A DNA stretch of 32,000 nt from Acaryochloris marina S15 (GCF_018336915.1 NZ_CP064923.1:5460001-5492000), one strand, 5' to 3'. Shown: positions 7,684 through 26,608, counted from the first letter of the stretch. Program-made: numbers and translations. Notes: generated by a model from the sequence alone, not told the origin.

Positions 7684-8409
7684 ATGAACAAAATGAGTAG
7701 ACATCCATCTTCAACGATTGGCCTCGCCATTACCCTAGCAGGAGTCATGCAGACACTGCCCCTGCATGCAGCTCAGCTCAACTTTGACCAGCCAGAAACT
7801 GAGGGCAGTCTAACGACTCCTGAGGCCATTAGTAATTGTGCCCAAGAGCCGGATCCAAATTTAACGTCTCAGTCTAATCATGGGGTCTCTAATCCGTCCC
7901 AAACCCTCATCTTGGGACCGAATCTCATTGCTAATAATATTGCGACAGCGAATGATGCGGGTTTATTCACATCAGAGTCGCCCTTAGTTGCTCAATCCAT
8001 CGTAGATGATTGCTGTGTAGTTGGAGACACAGCCATTGGTGGCCCTTCTGCCTTTGAAGATGCTGCATTTTGCGGACTGGGTGGCGTACCTCCAGCAGGA
8101 GGCGCTGCACCTGGTGGCTTTCCTTTTCCTGTACTGGCCGCTTTAGCACCAGCAGCAGCAGTTCCCTTTATAGCAACGGGTGGAGATCCGGAACCGACTC
8201 CAACACCCACGCCGACTCCAACTCCAACTCCGACTCCAACACCCACGCCCACACCCACTCCAACACCCACGCCCACTCCAACACCCACTCCAACGCCGCC
8301 TCCTACCAAGCCTCCAGAGAAAGTACCTGAGCCTTCTACAATGGCTGGGTTACTCATTGGCGGTGCTATATTCGGCATCTATAAACGGAGAAAGAAATCA
8401 AAAGACTAG
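7684..8409 (+). CDS. PEP-CTERM sorting-domain exported protein with a (Thr-Pro)17 linker
   Basis: It has a signal peptide (IGLAITLAGVMQTLPLHAAQ). The C-terminal VPEPSTMAGLLIGGAIFGIYKRRKKSKD gives the PEP motif, a TM helix and a basic tail, which is the PEP-CTERM/exosortase sorting signal. A (TP)17 tract precedes it. Confidence 0.85.
   Translation: MNKMSRHPSSTIGLAITLAGVMQTLPLHAAQLNFDQPETEGSLTTPEAISNCAQEPDPNLTSQSNHGVSNPSQTLILGPNLIANNIATANDAGLFTSESPLVAQSIVDDCCVVGDTAIGGPSAFEDAAFCGLGGVPPAGGAAPGGFPFPVLAALAPAAAVPFIATGGDPEPTPTPTPTPTPTPTPTPTPTPTPTPTPTPTPTPTPPPTKPPEKVPEPSTMAGLLIGGAIFGIYKRRKKSKD
8197..8298 (+). repeat. In-frame hexanucleotide tandem repeat encoding (Thr-Pro)x17
   Basis: There are 17 consecutive ACN-CCN units with varied third positions. 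A higher-order 18-nt unit, actccaacacccacgccN, recurs at 8197, 8233 and 8257. The complementary strand reads (GV)n, which explains the spurious ORF at 7992..8378. Confidence 0.95.
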
Positions 8410-16500: not shown

Positions 16501-18861
16501 TTAGGTTTCGTCGAAGGATAGGTTGGCGAAATGTTCTTGCAGGTAGCGATGGACGAAGACATAGCTGCCGCCTGTGCGATAGATAAATACGCAATCTTCG
16601 GCTTGTTGGAAAAAAGTGACGAAATTCCAAGGGATTTGCTTAGTTTGGCAGAGGACTAAACGCATTGACAAGTGTTGAGTACAGGGGTCTATTCCTTCGT
16701 TGTTGAGGATTAAAAAGAGTGGTAACACCATGAATAAGGCAATAATGAATCTCACTACAAATGGTTCTAGGAACAGAGGTAAAATATTTACCAGAGTAAA
16801 ACAAAGAACAATCATAAAAACAAGCGACACGATAACCTGTATCACTATCGTTTTTAAAGATCCCCAAATAACTTGATTAGGAAAAGTTCGATCTAGAATA
16901 TCGACTTTTAGCCCTCCAATCAGCTTGATACTTAGCCCTCCAATCAGCTTGATACTCTCCCCGAGAATCAATCCGAAAATTAGCCCGAGAATCAGGCCTC
17001 CAATCAGCCCGTAACTCTGCATGAAAAGCCCCCCGAAACTCAGCGCGTATGTCAGATAGCTTTCAAGGAGCTTCCAACTTCTTCGTCCCGTTTTGCGAGG
17101 CATTGGATTTTCTATAGCTTTTACTGAATACATCTTATCTCGCCTAACACTCAGCCCGAAAATCAATCCGATTAGCCCGAAAATTAGCCCAGAAATTAGT
17201 CCTCCAATTAGCCCAAAAACCCTTCCAATTAGCCCGAAAATTAGCCCGAGAATTAGCCCCCAAGCCAGCCCATAAAGCAGCCTATAAAGCCATTTAGTCC
17301 TTTCAGCTTCTACTAGATCCATCCCAACATACAGCCCTCCATACAGCCCCATTAGCCCTCCAAATAGCCCTCCGACAATACCTCCAAATAGCTCTCCGAC
17401 AATACCTCCAAATAGCCCGCAAATCAATCCGAAAATCAATCCGAAGATTAGCCCAAGAATCAGCCCAAAAAGCCATTTAGTCCTTGCTGTCTCCAGCCAA
17501 TCTTTGGGTTTCATTCGTTCGATCAAGAACTCTTTCCCCGCTCCCGTTTTCTTCGCTATTCCTTGCAGCCAGTGCAACATTTGTTGCTGTTCCGGCTCAG
17601 GTAAAGACCGCTGGGCAAACATTCGCTCAATATAACGATCAAACAGGAGTTTTAAGCGTTGGTCTTTAGGCAAATCCAGTAATTCCTGAGCTGGACGATT
17701 GCGATAGGCCAAAGTCAGAATCCATAGAAAAAGCGGCTTATTCACTAAGTCCCGTAAGGAGGGATCTGCCCCTAAAGCAGTTGCAATCCCTACTAACGCT
17801 TCCCCTCCCTCTTGTAAGTAATCATCTACCTGCTTTTCTGACAAAGGTTGAATATACACTGCTGCCTGAAACTCTTCTAAACGAGTGATCAAGGCTTGAT
17901 AGTCTACAATTCGGCAACACAGTGCGATTTCGATATTGCCAAACTTTTGCCGAAACTGATTCAATGCTTCCACACAAGCATCGCGATCTTGGGGTTTGAC
18001 TTCATCCAAACCATCCAGCAGCAAGGTCCATTTTTCCTGCTCCAGCCAAGTTTTTCCCACTTCTTTGCGAACTTGATATTGCTGCCATAACTCCTCCAGC
18101 AGCCACTGGGTAAAGGCCAGCGTTCCATCGTTAGGGAACTGCTGAGTGCCCCAAGCTGACAAATTCAACACAATCGGGATAGGCTGTTTTAGCTCTTGAA
18201 AATCAGTCGCTTCTAATAAATCTTGAGCCAGCTCCAAAAGCAAGGTTGTTTTCCCGGCACCCGGCTCCCCCAGCACCAACAACGTTCCGCCACCCCCCAA
18301 ATTAGCAAATCGATCCAACAGCCGCGTGCCAGGGGGCAACACCTGTTTCTCTTCTCCCGCCCTTTGCCACTCCATCCCCACCATCTCAGGCCGCTCTTCC
18401 AATCCCACTGCAATCCGAGCCTGCTCATACAGAGAGTTTTTCAAAACCCCATCAATCCATTTCACCCCCACCTTATCCATCAAGATTTGACGATTGTCTT
18501 GCCACCGGGCTTCATCCAATTCAGATGCTGTCAATATCGAGGGCTTGCGGACAAGCTGCACCACATCCACCACCATCATGCCCAGTAGCCCCACCAGCAC
18601 AACGCTATACAGCAAGCCAATCACTTTGGCAGTTGGGTTATCACTGCTAAAAGCAGCCATTGCCTCTGGAAAGACTCTGCCAATAAACCCCAACACGGCG
18701 GTTTCAACCACCAGCTTCAGCCATCGTCCCCATTTGGCTTTTTTCTGGTCAGCCGCAACTTGCCCCACCACCCAGCCCAACACCACCGGAATCAATACCG
18801 TGAACAGAGGCACCACAACCGTCTGAAAATTCGGATCACTCAGCAGTTTTTGAAGCATCAT
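16501..18861 (-). CDS. Membrane-embedded NACHT-family STAND NTPase with a C-terminal glycine-zipper transmembrane array
   Basis: Three N-terminal hydrophobic spans precede the NACHT core, which has Walker A LLVLGEPGAGKTTLLLELA and Walker B WTLLLDGLDEV. Then comes roughly 290 aa of GLIxGL/GGxxG hydrophobic repeats. The protein ends with FIYRTGGSYVFVHRYLQEHFA, a motif typical of the helical module after a NACHT core. I could not recognise any WD40, TPR or LRR repeats. Confidence 0.85.
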   Translation of the reverse strand: MMLQKLLSDPNFQTVVVPLFTVLIPVVLGWVVGQVAADQKKAKWGRWLKLVVETAVLGFIGRVFPEAMAAFSSDNPTAKVIGLLYSVVLVGLLGMMVVDVVQLVRKPSILTASELDEARWQDNRQILMDKVGVKWIDGVLKNSLYEQARIAVGLEERPEMVGMEWQRAGEEKQVLPPGTRLLDRFANLGGGGTLLVLGEPGAGKTTLLLELAQDLLEATDFQELKQPIPIVLNLSAWGTQQFPNDGTLAFTQWLLEELWQQYQVRKEVGKTWLEQEKWTLLLDGLDEVKPQDRDACVEALNQFRQKFGNIEIALCCRIVDYQALITRLEEFQAAVYIQPLSEKQVDDYLQEGGEALVGIATALGADPSLRDLVNKPLFLWILTLAYRNRPAQELLDLPKDQRLKLLFDRYIERMFAQRSLPEPEQQQMLHWLQGIAKKTGAGKEFLIERMKPKDWLETARTKWLFGLILGLIFGLIFGLICGLFGGIVGELFGGIVGGLFGGLMGLYGGLYVGMDLVEAERTKWLYRLLYGLAWGLILGLIFGLIGRVFGLIGGLISGLIFGLIGLIFGLSVRRDKMYSVKAIENPMPRKTGRRSWKLLESYLTYALSFGGLFMQSYGLIGGLILGLIFGLILGESIKLIGGLSIKLIGGLKVDILDRTFPNQVIWGSLKTIVIQVIVSLVFMIVLCFTLVNILPLFLEPFVVRFIIALFMVLPLFLILNNEGIDPCTQHLSMRLVLCQTKQIPWNFVTFFQQAEDCVFIYRTGGSYVFVHRYLQEHFANLSFDET
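16909..16956 (-). repeat. Perfect in-frame 24-nt tandem duplication inside the NACHT gene
   Basis: tagccctccaatcagcttgatact occurs twice back to back (16909-16932 and 16933-16956) with 24/24 identity. It encodes SIKLIGGL-SIKLIGGL. Confidence 0.95.
17155..17262 (-). repeat. Degenerate 12/9-nt periodic repeat encoding GLIF/GLI glycine-zipper units
   Basis: The plus strand reads agcccgaaaatc aatccgatt agcccgaaaatt agcccagaaatt agtcctccaatt agcccaaaaacc cttccaatt agcccgaaaatt agcccgagaatt. A 17-nt match, aaagccatttagtcctt, at 17286-17302 and 17469-17485 is 183 nt apart. That marks a duplicated 61-codon module beginning (E)RTKWL. Confidence 0.9.
17370..17417 (-). repeat. Second in-frame 24-nt tandem duplication (23/24 identical) inside the NACHT gene
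   Basis: ctccgacaatacctccaaatagcT (17370-17393) is followed by ctccgacaatacctccaaatagcC (17394-17417). Together they encode the GGIVGELF/GGIVGGLF units. Confidence 0.93.
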
Positions 18862-19192
18862 CGATATTTAAGAGAATAAGCAGCTTTAATCGAATATAAA
18901 CGAGAATAAAAGCAAAATCTATATAAAATATCCTTTCCAGCAAGAATTTTGCCGATTTACTCTCATTAAGATAAAGATCGATCTAAGTGCACGATCTTAT
19001 GCCCCATCAAACGTCTGGCCAACATTACCCTTGCCCCCTCCCCAGTACTCCAGATTTACCAACCAAGGTGAGTAGGCCCAAGATACGGGAACCCTAAATA
19101 TAAAGCGATGTAACGTTGGAACTTTTTATTGGTCAGCCAACCTGTTTCGCTCAGGTTCTACCCCATAATTTCCGACTCTATCCCCATCTCGC
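18862..19192. promoter_or_regulatory. Shared divergent promoter region between the NACHT gene and the first kinase/FGE gene
   Basis: This 331-bp AT-rich, ORF-free spacer is flanked by two outward-facing start codons (18861 minus, 19193 plus). No specific operator could be established. Confidence 0.55.
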
Positions 19193-21097
19193 ATGCTCCA
19201 TTGTCTGAACCCCACTTGCAGCAATCCTCAAAACCCAGACGGGCGTGACACCTGTCAACAATGCGGACAGCCCCTGATCGGCATATTGCGCAATCGATAT
19301 CGCATCATCAAACCACTGGGACAAGGTGGATTCGGCATCACTTATCTGGCCGAAGATATCGAGAGATTTAACGAGACTTGCGTGGTTAAACAATTAGCCT
19401 ATCAAAACCCTGATAGCCTCGCATCGCAGCAAAAAGTCCAAGACCTCTTTACCCAAGAAGCCCAACAGCTCTTTCAGCTCGGCACCCATCCACAAATCCC
19501 CAACCTGCTAGCCTACTTTCATGAAACAGGGCATCAATATTTAGTACAAGAATTTATCGAAGGTCCCAATCTTCTGCAAGAGCTGAAAAGCAACGGGGTA
19601 TATAGTGAATCCAAGCTGAGACACTTTCTCCGTAGCATCTTGCCCGTTCTAGACTATATCCATACCCAAGGCGTCATTCATCGCGATCTCAAACCCCACA
19701 ACATCATGTATCGCCCCGCCGATGATCGCTATTTCATCATCGACTTTGGCGTCACCAAGCAAGTCAATACTCAAGACCTCACAGGCACTGTATTAGGCAG
19801 CGAAGGATACGCCGCCTTCGAACAACTCCAATATGGTCAGGCCCATCCCGCGAGTGATTTATATAGTTTGGGGGTGAGCTGTTTTCACTTCTTGACAGGC
19901 CATGATCCAAGATCACTCCAGCTTCAGGTCGGGTATTCATGGACCCAAAACTGGCAGCAACATCTCCCAAAGCCCCTCAGCCCTGAGCTCACCTCAGTTC
20001 TTGACACCCTGCTCCAACTGCAACTAGAGAATCGCTATACCTCTGTTGCAGCAGTGCTCAAAGATTTAGCCCTCACCCAAACTTCTCCCCCCAAAAATCA
20101 AGTCGTGGCTCACAGCCAGCCACCTGCCCATCCACAACCCAAGCTTGAGTTAGCTCCAACCACTGACCGGACCGCCGTTATCTGGGAACCAACGAGCGAT
20201 ATCTCGACTTCATCCGCCTCTGCTGCGTTACACCCACCCTTACAAACCACACAGTTTGAAGTAGTAACCCTCGATGTAAGGGGGCAAACTCATTTGGTTC
20301 AGACCCTTACCGCCCAACAATATCTCGAAGAACTAGGAGACGGCATTTCCCTCTCGATGCTCGTTATCCCGGCCAGAAGTTTCTTCATGGGTTCATCGTC
20401 AACTGAAGTATCAAGACGCAAATTTGAAGGACCTCAACATCAAGTCTCAGTTGCCTCCTTCTACATGGGCCAATTCCTGATCACTCAAGCTCAATGGCAA
20501 GCCATAGCGGCTCTTCCCACCATCAACCATGACCTCTCCCCAGATCCATCGCAGTTCAAAGGAGCCGATCATCCAGTTGAGAGTATTTCCTGGCTAGATG
20601 CTGTCGAATGTTGTGACCGACTCACCCGCAAATTCAATCGACTCTATCGTCTACCCAGTGAAGCAGAGTGGGAATATGCTTGCCGAGCCAACACCACCAC
20701 CCCCTTCCACTGTGGCGAGACCCTCATCTCTGATCATGCTAATTTTCATGGCATGAAAACCTATCGATCCGCCCCTAGAGGTCAGTATCGCAACCAAACC
20801 ACTCCTGTAGGCAGTTTTCAAGCCAATGCTTTTGGCCTCCACGACATGCATGGCAATGTCTGGGAATGGTGCGCCGATGATTGGCATGCCAACTATCAAG
20901 GGGCTCCCATAGATGGCAGCATTTGGTTCACCCCAAACAACGATGCCATCGCAGGCAAGGCTCCCCATCCTTGGAGAGGTGGGTCTTGGTATGATGCCCC
21001 CGACAGCTGTCGGGCTGCCTATCGAACCTTTGCGGATGCCGACTTTAAGAGCAGTAATTTAGGCTTTCGAGTGGTCTCTCCAGTTCTATCCCCCTAA
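19193..21097 (+). CDS. Soluble Ser/Thr protein kinase with an N-terminal 4-Cys zinc ribbon and a C-terminal FGE-sulfatase (SUMF1-like) domain
   Basis: The zinc ribbon is CLNPTCSNPQNPDGRDTCQQCG. Hanks kinase motifs are intact: GQGGFG, VVKQL, HRDLKPHN (codons 163-170) and DFG (codons 184-186). A Pro-rich linker leads to the FGE-sulfatase fold (VIPARSFFMGS, HPVESISW, PSEAEWEYACR, HDMHGNVWEWC, RGGSW, SNLGFRVV). No TM segment is present. Confidence 0.9.
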   Translation: MLHCLNPTCSNPQNPDGRDTCQQCGQPLIGILRNRYRIIKPLGQGGFGITYLAEDIERFNETCVVKQLAYQNPDSLASQQKVQDLFTQEAQQLFQLGTHPQIPNLLAYFHETGHQYLVQEFIEGPNLLQELKSNGVYSESKLRHFLRSILPVLDYIHTQGVIHRDLKPHNIMYRPADDRYFIIDFGVTKQVNTQDLTGTVLGSEGYAAFEQLQYGQAHPASDLYSLGVSCFHFLTGHDPRSLQLQVGYSWTQNWQQHLPKPLSPELTSVLDTLLQLQLENRYTSVAAVLKDLALTQTSPPKNQVVAHSQPPAHPQPKLELAPTTDRTAVIWEPTSDISTSSASAALHPPLQTTQFEVVTLDVRGQTHLVQTLTAQQYLEELGDGISLSMLVIPARSFFMGSSSTEVSRRKFEGPQHQVSVASFYMGQFLITQAQWQAIAALPTINHDLSPDPSQFKGADHPVESISWLDAVECCDRLTRKFNRLYRLPSEAEWEYACRANTTTPFHCGETLISDHANFHGMKTYRSAPRGQYRNQTTPVGSFQANAFGLHDMHGNVWEWCADDWHANYQGAPIDGSIWFTPNNDAIAGKAPHPWRGGSWYDAPDSCRAAYRTFADADFKSSNLGFRVVSPVLSP

Positions 21098-21400
21098 AAA
21101 CCGAATTTGCTCAAGTTTTTTGCAGGGAAAAAGTCGATCGAGCAACCGTTATTAACACTAGTTCGATGGGTTTATGCCAATACTCACTATCAATACAGTA
21201 AGGTATTAGTAACAGAAATAGGGGGGGTAATTGAGTTCTGTGAGTGCCTCAATTTCTCTAGCAGACTAATGCTTCAAAACATGGTAGCTTCAATATTTCA
21301 AGTGTCTATTGGATAACACGATCAAAGTAGTACTTGAGCAATAAGCTATGTCAGTGTGCTGAGTGATTCTTTTCGATTGATTCCTATGAATATCTAAGCA

Positions 21401-23278
21401 ATGGTTTGTTGTCTCAATCCCAAGTGTGAGAAACCCCTCAACCCAGACACCAGTAAGTTTTGTCAACAGTGTGGTACAAAACTAACCCTGTTACGGCGAC
21501 GGTTTAAGATGGTTCGTCTGTTGGGTAAAGGTATGTTTGGCCATACGTATCTTGCAGAAGATCGAGATAATTTGCAGGAGCCCTGCATTGTCAAACAGCT
21601 AATTTGTCAAGCCCAGGGAACGGATGCCAGCCAGACGGTTGTTGAACCATTTTTACAAGAGGCAGAACAACTCAGACGGCTGAAAAAAAACCAACATATT
21701 CCCAGCATTTTAGCTTACTTCGAAGAAAATTATATTCCCTATTTAGTCCAGGAATATATCGACGGCCAAGACTTGCAACAAGTCATTGAGAATCAGGGTG
21801 CCTTCAGCGAGAATCAAGTCCGGGCCTTGTTACTAGAGCTCTTGCCGGTCTTACAGACGATCCATGATCAAGGGGTGATTCATCGGGACTTGAAACCCGC
21901 TCACATCATGCGTCAGCATTCAGATAGCAAGCTGATTCTGGTGGGGTTTTGTGTCTCCAAGCAACTCAGTTTATCTCAGTTACAGCAAACCGATAGCGTT
22001 CGAGAGAATACCAGCTACGCACCACCAGAAGTCTTTGCCGTCGATAAAGCTCGTCCCGGCAGCGATCTCTATAGCCTAGGTGCCACCTGCGTCCATTTAT
22101 TAACGGGAGTTGCTCCCCATGCTTTACCCATCCAAGGTGGAGAAGTATGGGTCGAACACTGGCAACAGCATCTTCCCCAGCCCTTGAGTGCTGAATTAAA
22201 GCCTGTGCTGGAGAAGTTACTCCGCACAGACCTAGCGGAGCGATATACTTCCGCCTTAGAAGTGCTCAGAGAAGTGCGCGGTTTTGCCAAAGCAACCTCC
22301 CGCCCCCTGCCCAAAATACCCGCCGTTCGAGCAGCCCAGACCTCTGGTCAGACAGCCCCACAAGCAGTCAGATCTCAGCCCAAGGCCCCGGCCCAGCCCA
22401 CCAAACTGCAGCCTAAACCCAAATCTTCCATCCCTTCCTTCCAAGCGGAAGTCGCCCAGGTCGATACCAAAGGCCAAGTGGTGAGTCGCCAATTTCATCC
22501 GATTGGCCACATCACCGAGGATCTCGGTAAGGATGTCACCCTGGAGTTGGCGCAGATTCCGGCAGGCCGCTTTTCCATGGGCTCGCCCCCTAGCGAGCAG
22601 CATCGGCAGCAGACCGAAAGTCCCCAGCATATTGTGTCTATCCCAGAATTTTATTTAAGTCGCTATCCCATCACTCAGGTCCAATGGCGTTTGGTGGCCG
22701 CCTTACCCGCAGTCAAGCGCGAACTGGATGATTCTCCGTCTCACTTTACGGGCGATGATCGCCCTGTCGAAAGCGTCTCTTGGTTTGATGTGGTCGAATT
22801 CTGTAACCGACTCTCCTTGTTAACTGGGAAGGACTATCACCTCCCTAGTGAATCTGCTTGGGAATATTCCTGCCGCGCCGCTAGTAACACCCCCTTTGCC
22901 TTTGGCGAAACCCTCAACACAGAACTGGCCAACTATGATGGCACAGCAGCCTATGGAGCTGGACCGACAGGCAATTTTCGCCAGCAAACCACCCGAGTGG
23001 GCAAATTCCCGGCCAATCCCTATGGGTTATCCGATATGCATGGCAATGTCTGGGAATGGTGTGCAGACCATTGGCATGGCAACTATGGCAATGCCCCAGT
23101 AGACGGCAGCGTCTGGCAAGATCAATACTTCTTTGCCTGTGTACTGAGGGGAGGGGCCTGGAATACCCAAGCCGCGAGCTGTCGTTCCGCCTCTCGCATT
23201 TGGGAAGCGGCCTCTGAACAAAGCAATCATATTGGGTTTCGGGTTGCTTGTACCTTAGTGAAACCAGCCAGCTCATAA
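21401..23278 (+). CDS. Paralogous zinc-ribbon / kinase-like / FGE-sulfatase protein; kinase domain predicted catalytically degenerate
   Basis: It has the same architecture as the upstream gene: CLNPKCEKPLNPDTSKFCQQCG, GKGMFG, IVKQL, and an FGE fold with IPAGRFSMGS, RPVESVSW, PSESAWEYSCR, SDMHGNVWEWC, RGGAW and NHIGFRVA. However, the catalytic loop reads HRDLKPAH, so Asn is replaced by His at codon 168. The DFG motif reads GFC at codons 182-184. Confidence 0.88.
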   Translation: MVCCLNPKCEKPLNPDTSKFCQQCGTKLTLLRRRFKMVRLLGKGMFGHTYLAEDRDNLQEPCIVKQLICQAQGTDASQTVVEPFLQEAEQLRRLKKNQHIPSILAYFEENYIPYLVQEYIDGQDLQQVIENQGAFSENQVRALLLELLPVLQTIHDQGVIHRDLKPAHIMRQHSDSKLILVGFCVSKQLSLSQLQQTDSVRENTSYAPPEVFAVDKARPGSDLYSLGATCVHLLTGVAPHALPIQGGEVWVEHWQQHLPQPLSAELKPVLEKLLRTDLAERYTSALEVLREVRGFAKATSRPLPKIPAVRAAQTSGQTAPQAVRSQPKAPAQPTKLQPKPKSSIPSFQAEVAQVDTKGQVVSRQFHPIGHITEDLGKDVTLELAQIPAGRFSMGSPPSEQHRQQTESPQHIVSIPEFYLSRYPITQVQWRLVAALPAVKRELDDSPSHFTGDDRPVESVSWFDVVEFCNRLSLLTGKDYHLPSESAWEYSCRAASNTPFAFGETLNTELANYDGTAAYGAGPTGNFRQQTTRVGKFPANPYGLSDMHGNVWEWCADHWHGNYGNAPVDGSVWQDQYFFACVLRGGAWNTQAASCRSASRIWEAASEQSNHIGFRVACTLVKPASS

Positions 23279-23355
23279 GCGCTTCAAGTCAGAGGGCAAA
23301 AAAACCGCAATAATAATGTGAATGCTCATTTTCATAAGGTGCAACATCCTGCCGG

Positions 23356-26097
23356 ATGGAAGTTCTCTCCGTTACGCTGAAAAACTTTAAGGCCCATCGC
23401 GATCGCTACTATGAATTCCGACCGGGGGCCAATGCCATTTGTGGTGAAAATGGGTCAGGGAAGACCAGCATCCTAGAAGCCATTGCCTGGGTTTTATTTG
23501 ATCACAGCGAGTACAAGCGAGCCGAACTAATCACCGTCGGGGCCAAAAGTGCCCAAGCCATCGTCAGCTTTATATCCCACTTGGATGGGCGAATCTACGA
23601 GGTGCGTCGCTGTACTAGTCGGGGCTATGAGGTTCACGACCCCCAGCTCAACCGCAAGCTAGAACTGAAAAAACTCGATGATGTCCGCTGCTGGCTCTGT
23701 GAACATTTGGGGGTGGGGGTCCACACGGAACTGGCCAAATTGTTTGCAGAAACCATTGGCATTCCCCAGGGCACCTTTACAGTGGATTTTCTCAAATCAG
23801 CGGGCGATCGCAAAAAGGTATTCGATCCCATTCTGAAGGTGGAAGAGTATAAACAGGCTTACGATCAGGCCCAAAAATTAACCAGTTATGCCCAGGCCCA
23901 GGTCCAACAGCTAGAGCAAAAATTACAAAGCTACGACCAGCAACTCGAAGGCTGGGAAGCGCTTAAGCAACAGAAGCTAGAGCTAGCTAAAACCTTGACT
24001 CAGCAGATGGCCCAGATGCAAACCCTGGCTCAGCAGTTGGGTGAGATTCGGACTGAACTCAAGGATTTAAAGACCCAAGACCAAGCCATCCAAACCCTAG
24101 ACAAACAGGTCCAGCATCTCCAAACCCAATGGACCAGTAAACAGGAAATTCTCCAGCTCTTAGAGGAGAATTGGCAGCAGGCAGACCAAGCCGTCCAGAT
24201 TTGTCGTCAGCATCGGCCTCAATTTCAGGCCTATCAAGCGGCCCAAGAGACCCTCAAGGCCCTCGCTCAACAACAAAAACAACGACAGCAACTGCTGCAA
24301 GAACGCGATCGCATCCAAAATACCCTCCGCGATCAGCAAGTCCTACTCTCCCAAAACCAAGGCCAACTCTCCACCTTTGCCAAGATGGACGCAGAACTCC
24401 AGGACTGGCAAACCAAAGTTCCGCAACAACAGCAGCTCGACCAAGAAAAGACCACTTGCCAACAGGCCCTCCAAACCCTAGTCTCCGACCAAAAACACCT
24501 ACAGCGACTGCAAGAGCAAATCCACAAACAGCAGCAGAGTTGGGAAACCCTCAGCCAGACCATTCGCCAACTGGTCGCCCTAGAACCACAAGTTCAGGCC
24601 ATTCCTAACTTCGAAGCCCAGCAGCAGAAGATTCAAGAACGGCTGGGACGAATTGCCGCCGCCCAGCAATTTGCCACAGAATTACAGACATTACTGACCG
24701 AGGCTGAACCCCAACAACAGCACTATCAGCAGCAAGTAGACACAGCGAAAGATCTGCTCAGTCGTTCCACCCTGAACCCAGCCCAGACCACTCAACTCGC
24801 CACCATTTTGGACCAAGGGGCTGCCCTCACCCACCAGATTATTCAGCAGCTCCAAACAGCTTTTGCCGACATTATTGATCCCCAGACCGTCACCAACCTC
24901 AAGCAACAGCTTCGGCAGATAAAAACCCAACTCAAAGCCGCCCAAAAAGCCCAAACCCAATGGTTGATGCTAGAGGCCCAACAGCATCAGCTAACGGAGC
25001 TAGAGCAAGGGATGACGTCACTGCAGCAAGAGTGCGATCGCATCCAGGTCACCCTCAACCAAGAGCCCCAGCTCCAGAGCCAACTAGCACAGCTCAATAC
25101 CCAGCTAACGGCACTCAGCGACCCCCAGGGCCATGTCCGCATCTTGCAGCAGCAGCTTCAAGGAGCCACCCAGCTAGAAGCAGAGATCACTCGCCTTCAA
25201 CAGGCCTGTCAAGGTCATCAGCAGTCCCTCACAACCTTTGAAACCCAGGTCGAAGCCTTGGGAGATCTAGAAGCCCAAGTCGATGCCCAACAGCAGATCC
25301 AGCAAGAGCATCAGGAGGTGTATCAGCGCTATTTACGCCATCGGAATCAGGCCAATACCTTTAAAGACCTAGATCAGCAACGCCAAGGTGCGATCGCTAC
25401 CCAAACCCAACTCCAAACCCAGTTAACGGGTGCTCAAGCCCAATGGCAGGAAAAGCTCAAAGATCATAATCCTGAGCGGCTAGCTGAAGTGAGTCACACC
25501 TATGAACAATTGCAGCGACACCATGACCAGCTCCAGGGGGGACTAGCCCCCCAACAGGCTCAGCTGCAATATCTCGATCAGCAATTGGAAGCCAAGCAAG
25601 CCCTCGCCCAAGAGCGCGATCAGATCTGGGTGACCTTAGAGGATAAGCGCCAAATCTCACAGTTCGTTATCGATGCTCGCAACGTCTACAAGCAAAGCGG
25701 TCCTCGAATCACCAAATTTTACCTGACAGAAATTTCTTGGGAGGCGGATCGGCTCTATCGGGAGCTGCTCGATCGGCCTGATGTGGCTTTACAGTGGACT
25801 GAAGATTACGAAATTCAGGTACAAGAGCAGGGCCATTGGCGTAGCTTCAAAAGCCTGTCGGGGGGAGAGCAGATGTGTGCTGCTTTAGCCGTGCGCCTAG
25901 CCTTGCTGAAAGTCTTAGTCGATATCAATATTGCGTTTTTCGACGAGCCCACAACGAACATGGATGAACTGCGTCGTCGACAGTTGGCCGAAGCCTTGGG
26001 GCATCTCAAATCCTTCCATCAGCTGTTTGTGATCAGTCATGACGACACTTTTGAGAGCGTTACAGAAAATATTATTCGGGTAGAGAGAGCGAGTTAA
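23356..26097 (+). CDS. Rad50/SbcC-like SMC-family ABC ATPase with a very long Gln-rich coiled coil
   Basis: The N-terminal head is LKNFKAHRD...ICGENGSGKTSILEAI (Walker A), followed by about 600 aa of Q-rich heptad-like sequence. The C-terminal head has SLSGGEQMCAALAVRLAL (signature), IAFFDEPTTNMD (Walker B/D-loop) and FVISHDD (H-loop). There is no CxxC in the coiled-coil region and no nuclease gene next to it. Confidence 0.85.
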   Translation: MEVLSVTLKNFKAHRDRYYEFRPGANAICGENGSGKTSILEAIAWVLFDHSEYKRAELITVGAKSAQAIVSFISHLDGRIYEVRRCTSRGYEVHDPQLNRKLELKKLDDVRCWLCEHLGVGVHTELAKLFAETIGIPQGTFTVDFLKSAGDRKKVFDPILKVEEYKQAYDQAQKLTSYAQAQVQQLEQKLQSYDQQLEGWEALKQQKLELAKTLTQQMAQMQTLAQQLGEIRTELKDLKTQDQAIQTLDKQVQHLQTQWTSKQEILQLLEENWQQADQAVQICRQHRPQFQAYQAAQETLKALAQQQKQRQQLLQERDRIQNTLRDQQVLLSQNQGQLSTFAKMDAELQDWQTKVPQQQQLDQEKTTCQQALQTLVSDQKHLQRLQEQIHKQQQSWETLSQTIRQLVALEPQVQAIPNFEAQQQKIQERLGRIAAAQQFATELQTLLTEAEPQQQHYQQQVDTAKDLLSRSTLNPAQTTQLATILDQGAALTHQIIQQLQTAFADIIDPQTVTNLKQQLRQIKTQLKAAQKAQTQWLMLEAQQHQLTELEQGMTSLQQECDRIQVTLNQEPQLQSQLAQLNTQLTALSDPQGHVRILQQQLQGATQLEAEITRLQQACQGHQQSLTTFETQVEALGDLEAQVDAQQQIQQEHQEVYQRYLRHRNQANTFKDLDQQRQGAIATQTQLQTQLTGAQAQWQEKLKDHNPERLAEVSHTYEQLQRHHDQLQGGLAPQQAQLQYLDQQLEAKQALAQERDQIWVTLEDKRQISQFVIDARNVYKQSGPRITKFYLTEISWEADRLYRELLDRPDVALQWTEDYEIQVQEQGHWRSFKSLSGGEQMCAALAVRLALLKVLVDINIAFFDEPTTNMDELRRRQLAEALGHLKSFHQLFVISHDDTFESVTENIIRVERAS

Positions 26098-26116
26098 AGC
26101 GTTCAGCCTCACGCCC

Positions 26117-26608
26117 TTAAGGGGTGGTCCACTTTGTCACAGGTGCCGCAATTTGCTGCTGTTTTTGGTAGGCCGCCACTTCCTGCTGGCACATGCTCAG
26201 ACTGTTCTGCTCGGTGTTACCCACGGATTTGATGTGATGCATTTTTGTGAGGGGGACTTCAACTTCTAGGGCATTTTCGTGGGGTGCGCCCAAAGATAAT
26301 ACTTCCAAACGCTGATTCTTGGCCGTGCCCGTAAAACAGCTGAACTCGGATTGGGGATAGAAAAACGCACCCGTTACTTTCTGACCCTGCTTTTTGAACA
26401 CGACATAACCCTGACCGATTTGATTGGCTTGGTCAGAATCACCATAGAGATACATGCCATCAGCAAGGGGCGTCGAAGGCCCAGAGGCAGCAATATTCGT
26501 GGGTTCTGCAACAGCAAGGCCCGTGCTTCCTAAGACGAGGGCACCACTAACTGCCAGAACTGCTTTGATAGAACCAGAGAGAATTGAAGCTTGGGGAAAT
26601 TTTTTCAT
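26117..26608 (-). CDS. Small exported hypothetical protein
   Basis: This is a 163-aa ORF with a signal-peptide-like N-terminus (MKKFPQASILSGSIKAVLAVSGALVLGSTGLAVA/EP). I recognise no family. Confidence 0.6.
   Translation of the reverse strand: MKKFPQASILSGSIKAVLAVSGALVLGSTGLAVAEPTNIAASGPSTPLADGMYLYGDSDQANQIGQGYVVFKKQGQKVTGAFFYPQSEFSCFTGTAKNQRLEVLSLGAPHENALEVEVPLTKMHHIKSVGNTEQNSLSMCQQEVAAYQKQQQIAAPVTKWTTP

Follow-up and report, generated by a model that had tools for sequence, protein, structure and literature searches.

Two adjacent genes in a 32,000-nucleotide stretch of Acaryochloris marina S15 DNA (NZ_CP064923.1:5460001-5492000; this whole stretch is called the window below) encode proteins, here P1 (19193..21097, + strand, 634 aa) and P2 (21401..23278, + strand, 625 aa), each of which ends in a domain of the formylglycine-generating enzyme (FGE) family. 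Such proteins carry the database names ‘bifunctional serine/threonine-protein kinase/formylglycine-generating enzyme’ or ‘nonheme iron enzyme’. The best explanation of the evidence as a whole, to which we would assign a probability of about three in four, is that P1 and P2 are cytosolic signalling proteins, built from a zinc ribbon, a kinase domain and a domain of FGE-type C-type-lectin (CLec) kind which is not an FGE, and that their binding surfaces are fixed. On this reading the database names are misleading, and the C-terminal domain should be re-annotated as a non-catalytic lectin-fold binding module.

P1 and P2 lie in tandem, are 45% identical, and follow the same domain order: a 4-Cys zinc ribbon, a Ser/Thr kinase domain (with a degenerate active site in P2), a linker rich in proline and glutamine, and the FGE-sulfatase domain. 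The ribbon, an N-terminal CxxC...CxxC element at aa 3-28, is matched by the NCBIfam model NF045510 (4Cys_prefix) with 35.5 bits in P1 and 41.2 bits in P2, both above the cut-off of 24 bits. Pfam places the kinase domain (Pkinase) of P1 at aa 36-287 (19298..20053, + strand), and FGE-sulfatase (PF03781) at aa 388-628 of P1 (20354..21076, + strand; E 2.6e-50) and aa 384-616 of P2 (22550..23248, + strand; E 4.5e-48). The interval singled out in an initial annotation of this DNA, 20260-23278, takes in the C-terminal third of P1, the intergenic gap and the entire P2 gene; its start falls two bases off the P1 reading frame.

True FGEs bind Cu(I) through a C-x4-C pair, C336 and C341 in the human enzyme. 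Both cysteines are needed, the C336S and C341S mutants being inactive, and titles of Protein Data Bank (PDB) entries document these two mutants of human FGE as well as Cu(I)-bound FGE structures. Pairwise HMMER alignments of P1 and P2 with solved structures (wild-type human FGE, 8aru; Thermomonospora curvata FGE, 5nxl/6s07; TvpA; PvdO) reveal that the pair is incomplete in both proteins. The first catalytic position is taken by Asp601 in P1 (nt 20993-20995) and by Thr589 in P2 (nt 23165-23167), and the second Cys is retained, as Cys606 (21008-21010) and Cys594 (23180-23182), respectively. Because the alignment is gap-free from the GGS/GGA motif across both Cys positions, the assignment of Asp601 and Thr589 to the first-Cys site is unambiguous. 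The initial annotation had arrived by eye at this same reading, with Asp in the first paralog, Thr in the second, and one Cys of the catalytic pair gone from each; alignment to the characterised FGEs bears it out. Where T. curvata FGE reads KGGSFL-C-HESY-C-NRY-RVAAR...HTGFRC, P1 has RGGSWY-D-APDS-C-----RAAYR...SNLGFRV and P2 has RGGAWN-T-QAAS-C-----RSASR...NHIGFRV, such that both carry a 3-residue deletion after the second Cys relative to true FGEs (in human FGE, the C-terminal part of the segment is ...SNLGFRC). TvpA (RGGSWA-G-SADY-C-----AVGER...SDLGFRL) and PvdO (RGNDWG-E-PPIF-S-----RSGNR...DWIGFRV) align to P2 without gaps after the second Cys, and hence they have the shorter segment too.

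The same kinship emerges from the domain as a whole. By sequence, the best PDB relative is PvdO (5hha), with E 1e-33 for P1 and 6e-38 for P2, as compared with E about 1e-18 for TvpA and the true FGEs. An AlphaFold2 model of the P1 domain (mean pLDDT 86.5) gives Foldseek TM scores of 0.75 with PvdO, 0.72 with TvpA and 0.61-0.70 with FGEs. That the two domains are unlikely to be sulfatase maturases, as had been proposed from the missing Cys, is supported by the incomplete pair, by the closer relation to PvdO and TvpA than to FGEs, and by the window itself, where no Sulfatase domain was found in the 19 other open reading frames (ORFs) scanned across its 32 kb. In a large protein collection, the closest FGE-domain sequences are cyanobacterial (53-59% identity); in these proteins the FGE-sulfatase domain either stands alone or is joined to a TIR, EAD, vWA or HTH domain. 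Four loci encoding the best FGE-domain homologs were fetched, and all four proved to be VMAP/iSTAND-MoxR-vWA ‘ternary’ conflict systems.

Membership in a particular subfamily is written into the last 35 residues of the domain. Our family sample comprised 238 homologs, of which 120 are stand-alone or otherwise fused and 118 are kinase-fused. In the alignment of the 120, scaffold positions alternate with variable ones; the invariant scaffold, in P1 numbering, consists of R595, G596, G597, S598, W599, P603, C606, R607, A609, R611, G624, F625 and R626. Across the 238 homologs the scaffold pattern is RGGSW..P..CRSA.R...GFRVVC, and the form RGGSW..P..C R.A.R...GFRV is common to P1, P2, the 238 homologs and TvpA. 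The residues found between these scaffold positions are mostly N, Y, D, S, F, L, G, I, H and V in the 120 homologs, with a repertoire over all 238 of N/D/S/Y/G/F/V/L/I/T/C/R/H/A/P. In P1 the corresponding variable-region-like segment is aa 595-629 (RGGSWYDAPDSCRAAYRTFADADFKSSNLGFRVVS; 20975..21079, + strand); in P2 it is aa 583-617 (RGGAWNTQAASCRSASRIWEAASEQSNHIGFRVAC; 23147..23251, + strand).

The behavior of the two catalytic positions within this pattern is telling. At the first-Cys site, the 120 stand-alone or otherwise fused homologs use exactly the 15 amino acids encoded by NNC codons, with K, E, Q, M and W absent, and the 118 kinase-fused homologs use NNC-type residues as well, except for two Glu. 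Over the full sample, K, Q, M and W never appear at this site, Glu appears in 2/238 and Cys in 5/238, the last being about the chance level. The second Cys, on the other hand, is present in 219 of the 238. An NNC-type repertoire is the expected outcome of adenine mutagenesis of AAY codons, and as such is a hallmark of the variable regions of diversity-generating retroelements (DGRs) (PMC10907252). Given this pattern of variable and invariant positions across homologs, the first-Cys position would be a family-wide ligand-contact site and the second Cys a part of the scaffold. Both domains are members of the FGE-type C-type-lectin subfamily of cyanobacteria, termed ‘CLec’ or ‘FGS’, which is the scaffold that DGRs mutate.

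Several related observations concern the cysteines of this family. A kinase-CLec cluster from Microcoleus vaginatus (P0190) has both Cys with FGE spacing, in the form RGGGWN-C-NTVY-C; since a hypervariable site of this family will hold Cys now and then by chance (5/238), the Cys pair alone is no sign of FGE activity here. A third conserved Acaryochloris kinase-CLec paralog (AM1_2959 type; P0133/P0270 cluster) likewise lacks the first Cys, and its segment, RGGSWYNKPRYCRAANRSRYTPNNRVNDIGFRVA, is invariant in 14 sequences, with 0/34 variable columns. Cys560 (in WEWC), His565 and Cys606 of P1 (window 20870-21079) are nearly invariant in the family. Cys629 (in RVVC) is found in 108/120 homologs; P1 of the window has Ser629, and its 97% ortholog has Cys. 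These four positions could form a metal site or could simply pack within the core.

In Acaryochloris, the P1 and P2 segments are not being diversified; they are fixed and under purifying selection. The P1 segment is 89-97% identical among orthologs with only 75-80% whole-protein identity, and in the 16 close P1 orthologs (identity of 90% or more) 4/33 of its columns vary (12%), as compared with 17% in the domain core and 13% in the kinase. The P2 segment has 100% amino-acid identity in four genomes (this one, A. marina MBIC11017, CCMEE 5410 and Acaryochloris sp. ‘Moss Beach’), among which 9-11 of 102 DNA positions differ, all of them synonymously. In 11 further P2 orthologs (68-99% identity), the segment is 77-100% identical, with an invariant RIWEAASE motif, and it stands above the domain core in every one of these orthologs below 99% identity. 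Ratios of nonsynonymous to synonymous substitution rates (dN/dS), computed by the Nei-Gojobori method against MBIC11017 and CCMEE 5410, are consistent with these counts: 0.07-0.13 for the P1 segment, and dN = 0 with dS 0.58-0.78 for that of P2. Overall, the segments have accumulated 0-4.5 nonsynonymous as against 8.5-12 synonymous substitutions, at dS 0.47-0.78. From such conservation, active diversification of P1 and P2 is very unlikely.

The codons themselves point in the same direction. Gln, Glu and Trp occur in P2 at positions that vary in the family, and the third bases of codons are mixed in P1 and P2 alike; both features are signs of an ordinary point-mutation history. Between the two paralogs, nucleotide identity (20974-21072 vs 23146-23244) is 72-73% just upstream and drops to 58.6% within the segment, so that the putative binding surfaces differ more between paralogs than any other part of the domain, and yet are the part best conserved between orthologs. 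No template repeat (TR) was found in the window, where a search for repeats and a sensitive blastn comparison with the 3' end of each gene gave only a weak paralog match, nor in the four orthologous loci, and self-blast of eight loci produced no A-biased mismatch pairs. A reverse transcriptase (RT) is likewise missing: there is no RVT domain in window ORFs of at least 120 aa, nor is an RT listed in the gene tables of loci L003-L006; a remote target would not require an RT close by. Distant-mode blastn of PLSDB plasmids returned no DNA similar to either segment. In the terms of Vallota-Eastman et al., P1 and P2 fit the ‘VP homologs’, a class without TR match that is included in their survey of cyanobacterial DGRs (PMC7517822).

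The kinase halves of the two proteins have taken different paths. P1 has a complete set of catalytic motifs, comprising the G-loop GQGGFG (43-48), Lys66, Glu89, HRD (163-165), Asn170 and DFG (184-186), and its kinase domain has dN/dS 0.10-0.13 relative to orthologs. P2 retains Lys65, Glu87 and HRD (161-163). In its catalytic-loop and DFG region (aa 161-184; 21881..21952, + strand), the catalytic loop reads HRDLKPAH, with His168 in place of Asn, and DFG has become Gly182-Phe-Cys (LVGFC). With Asn replaced by His168 and the DFG Asp by Gly182, P2 is left with neither of the residues that coordinate Mg. Both changes occur, unvaried, in 12/12 P2-type orthologs, as compared with 97/101 other homologs of the P2 search in which Asn and DFG are kept; in the P1 search, DFG is kept in all 111 HRD-bearing homologs. 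The kinase-like domain of P2 is, moreover, under stronger constraint than that of P1, with dN/dS of about 0.05 vs about 0.1. Judged by these residues, P1 looks catalytically competent and P2 does not, and P2 is a conserved, predicted pseudokinase-CLec encoded beside the kinase-CLec P1.

Both proteins are predicted to be cytosolic. The highest mean Kyte-Doolittle hydropathy over 19 residues is 1.21 in P1 and 1.27 in P2, as compared with 2.9 in a membrane-spanning NACHT neighbor that served as the control, and the N-termini are polar 4-Cys zinc ribbons. No transmembrane segment or signal peptide is apparent in P1 or P2 by hydropathy and inspection of the N-termini, made with no dedicated signal-peptide predictor, in agreement with the initial annotation. 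Its proposal that the domains act as intracellular binding modules attached to the kinase has also fared well: they belong to the CLec subfamily, the site of the missing Cys is a hypervariable contact position in that family, and the architecture is a published one. What it overlooked is the DGR/CLec context of the family, the frozen binding site under purifying selection, and the P2 pseudokinase. The ‘sensor’ role that it suggested is one that we, too, can only infer.

A working model can be assembled from these elements. The ~35 C-terminal residues of the CLec domain, which in other genomes are rewritten by DGRs, would constitute the ligand-binding surface, and a surface held fixed by purifying selection would imply that the ligand recognized is a constant one. 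By occupying this surface, a small molecule or a protein may control or target the linked kinase. P1 would be the phosphotransferase of the pair, with P2 serving a non-catalytic function, whether as a second receptor, as a scaffold or as a partner. That the surface binds a ligand, that the kinase is regulated in this way, and that the two proteins cooperate are all proposed here as inferences that go beyond the identity of the domains.

A more speculative extension, which we regard as rather doubtful, is that P1 and P2 are ‘domesticated’ descendants of DGR-diversified receptors, whose two binding surfaces were picked out by selection, became fixed and have since been held by purifying selection throughout the genus, with the active kinase and the pseudokinase forming a heteromeric cytosolic sensor. 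If true, this would provide a bacterial counterpart of kinase/pseudokinase receptor pairs, and would be a case in which a somatic-type diversification system has left behind germline-fixed receptors.

Several points weigh against the interpretation of P1 and P2 as signalling proteins with non-enzymatic binding domains. Ligand binding and kinase regulation are read from family membership and fold, and the link from the subfamily to DGRs is drawn from the residue signature together with published surveys; the four fetched homolog loci (4/4) have neither RT nor TR within 6-8 kb. The reading as a binding module assigns no particular role to the invariant second Cys. The NCBI name is ‘SUMF1/EgtB/PvdO family nonheme iron enzyme’, and some enzymatic activity is possible as far as the sequence goes. 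For P2, finally, Lys65, Glu87 and the HRD Asp are kept, and residual or atypical catalysis is possible.

The alternative that fares best leaves the CLec domain as a binding module and changes only what it does: it would not sense a ligand and turn on the kinase allosterically, but would be a docking module that chooses the substrates of the kinase. This is put forward explicitly as an alternative by Vallota-Eastman et al. (PMC7517822), a fixed surface under purifying selection suits a constant protein partner, and the long disordered linker would permit a tethered recruitment geometry. The present data do not discriminate between docking and sensing. The only consistently adjacent genes encode the paralog and a Rad50/SbcC-like ATPase, with no candidate substrate gene among them, and we consider docking a possible, if clearly less probable, account.

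It is less probable again that P1 and P2 are anti-phage or conflict sensors, whose CLec domains would recognize an invader molecule, perhaps together with the neighboring NACHT NTPase. The nearest FGE-domain relatives do reside in VMAP/iSTAND-MoxR-vWA conflict loci (PMC7159879), a NACHT protein is encoded divergently upstream (16501-18861), and the 4-Cys prefix and kinase match PADLOC models for PD-T4-6 with E 1e-98 and 1e-91. This last match mostly signals ‘Ser/Thr kinase’, however, as PD-T4-6 is represented by kinase models that are broad and number about 25. The chromosomal neighborhood of the pair, made up of polysaccharide and housekeeping-type genes, is conserved; CCMEE 5410 lacks the NACHT gene, and the equivalent ORFs of MBIC11017 have no Pfam hit. 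Frozen binding surfaces, moreover, are not what one would expect of an arms-race receptor. Taken together, these considerations make a role in conflict unlikely.

That the domain is a real enzyme, be it a one-cysteine FGE or an oxidoreductase of PvdO/EgtB type with a small-molecule substrate, we hold to be highly improbable. In its favor are the strong match to PF03781, the invariance of one of the paired Cys, and the best NCBIfam match, PvdO, ‘dihydropyoverdine dehydrogenase’, with 143-148 bits; this score is far under the 500-bit equivalog cut-off. In EgtB, a DinB-type domain bears iron ligands, and neither Pfam nor NCBIfam finds such a domain upstream of the FGE domain in P1 or P2; models for EgtB, OvoA and SenA match only the C-terminal part, and far below their cut-offs. 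FGE, for its part, requires both Cys, as is reflected in the C336S and C341S mutant structures, and the window offers no nearby sulfatase gene. Across this family, the counterpart of the FGE active-site region is hypervariable, and such variability is incompatible with a catalytic pocket that is conserved.

Lastly, the idea that P1 and P2 are active targets of a remote DGR, with TR and RT elsewhere in the genome, has the subfamily, the 3'-end position of the segments, the exclusive use of NNC-type residues by P1 at family-variable positions, and the frequency of remote targets in cyanobacteria (PMC7517822) in its favor, but it is largely refuted by segments that rank among the most conserved parts across species at dS 0.5-0.8 (in the 16 P1 orthologs, 12% variable columns vs 17% in the domain core), by mixed third codon bases and, in P2, by codons for Gln, Glu and Trp, which mutagenesis of the A bases of AAY codons could not reach, by the lack of TR or RT in the window and of similar DNA in PLSDB plasmids, and by the main text of the cyanobacterial DGR survey, which makes no mention of Acaryochloris (PMC7517822).

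Turning to the wider locus, a protein of Acaryochloris sp. ‘Moss Beach’ shares 97% identity with P1, and one of A. marina NIES-2412 shares 99% with P2. Orthologs in Acaryochloris genomes range over 75-97% identity for P1 and 68-99% for P2, and the P1-P2 tandem is syntenic in four genomes, namely ‘Moss Beach’, A. marina MBIC11017, CCMEE 5410 and a Logan assembly. In ‘Moss Beach’ (CP071717; L003 12209-14091), a frameshift in the linker breaks the P2 ortholog into two ORFs, one of 362 aa for the pseudokinase and one of 265 aa for the FGE domain, which is either a genuine disruption or an assembly error. Counts in a promoter and terminator scan of 18700-26300 were not above those for shuffled sequence, and an Rfam scan of 18700-23500 gave no match.

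The gene for the Rad50/SbcC-like ATPase (23356-26097, + strand; 913 aa, Gln-rich) begins 77 nt past P2 and is kept downstream of the P1-P2 pair in 4/4 genomes. It has no adjoining SbcD-like nuclease gene, and its weak PADLOC matches are to LmuB and mad3. On the other side, the NACHT NTPase (16501-18861, - strand; 786 aa) has a C-terminal half made up of repeated G-L-I-F-G-L hydrophobic units, and its gene contains the DNA repeat family D2 (16952-17485); the ‘Moss Beach’ version is 688 aa long. As for the PD-T4-6 models of PADLOC, PDLC04044 and PDLC04062 match 19193-20140 and 21401-22360 from profile position 1, and some of these models are evidently derived from 4-Cys-prefix kinases. Farther away, a 241-aa PEP-CTERM protein is encoded at window 7684-8409 (+ strand), with eight overlapping repeat copies of 12-nt period at 8175-8318 that code for a Thr/Pro-rich stretch.

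Among known systems, FGE itself (human SUMF1; T. curvata; S. coelicolor) has in common with P1 and P2 the Pfam family, the fold, and the GGS, WEW and terminal GFR motifs. Unlike FGE, P1 and P2 have Asp or Thr in place of the first Cu(I)-ligand Cys, have lost the Y/N-R-Y that follows the second Cys, are cytosolic and fused to kinases, and belong to a family in which the equivalent of the active-site loop is hypervariable. PvdO of Pseudomonas aeruginosa, the best solved relative, resembles them in the short segment after the second-Cys position. It lacks both Cys, with Glu and Ser in their places, and is a periplasmic, single-domain protein of pyoverdine maturation; against its equivalog model NF051459, P1 and P2 score 143.0 and 148.2 bits.

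TvpA (2y3c), a DGR variable protein of Treponema denticola, is an instructive comparison. It has the same FGE-type C-type-lectin fold and the RGGSW-x6-C-...-GFR scaffold, in which the first catalytic position holds Gly and the second Cys is kept, at a sequence identity with P1 and P2 of only about 22%. TvpA is reported to be without FGE activity, and is described as a DGR-diversified lipoprotein thought to engage in surface interactions (PMC5758913), unlike the cytosolic, kinase-fused and undiversified P1 and P2. Closer in sequence are the ‘FGS’ domains that Kaur et al. described in VMAP/iSTAND-MoxR-vWA ternary systems and linked to DGRs (PMC7159879), for it is these that supply the nearest FGE-domain matches noted above. 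They also obey the same architectural rule, other domains always being N-terminal to FGS. P1 and P2 depart from the ternary systems in having a kinase as fusion partner, no adjoining vWA, MoxR or VMAP genes, and a conserved chromosomal locus.

The closest parallel in architecture is provided by the kinase-CLec proteins of Vallota-Eastman et al. (PMC7517822). These workers found the graft of CLec onto a Ser/Thr kinase to be the commonest cyanobacterial DGR target or paralog, mostly cytosolic, and proposed that ligand binding either releases autoinhibition or selects substrates. P1 and P2 are like those proteins in having an N-terminal Hanks-type kinase, a C-terminal FGE-type CLec with the variable-region scaffold at its extreme C-terminus, a predicted cytosolic location, and about 50% identity within the CLec domains. 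Unlike the diversified members of that survey, they show no match to a TR in the window and no hypervariability from one strain to another, and the P2 pseudokinase is of a type not described there. That FGE-fold domains without the Cys pair serve as binding modules, often on cytosolic cyanobacterial kinases, is already published; what is new here is that these two genes are placed within the DGR-type CLec family as frozen members under purifying selection, and that their kinase/pseudokinase pairing is conserved. P1 and P2 offer a clean example of the non-diversifying end of a DGR-target family, and a surface fixed across the genus is a tractable place at which to find the natural ligand of a cyanobacterial kinase-CLec. 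The least expected element of the locus is the adjoining, strongly conserved pseudokinase paralog.

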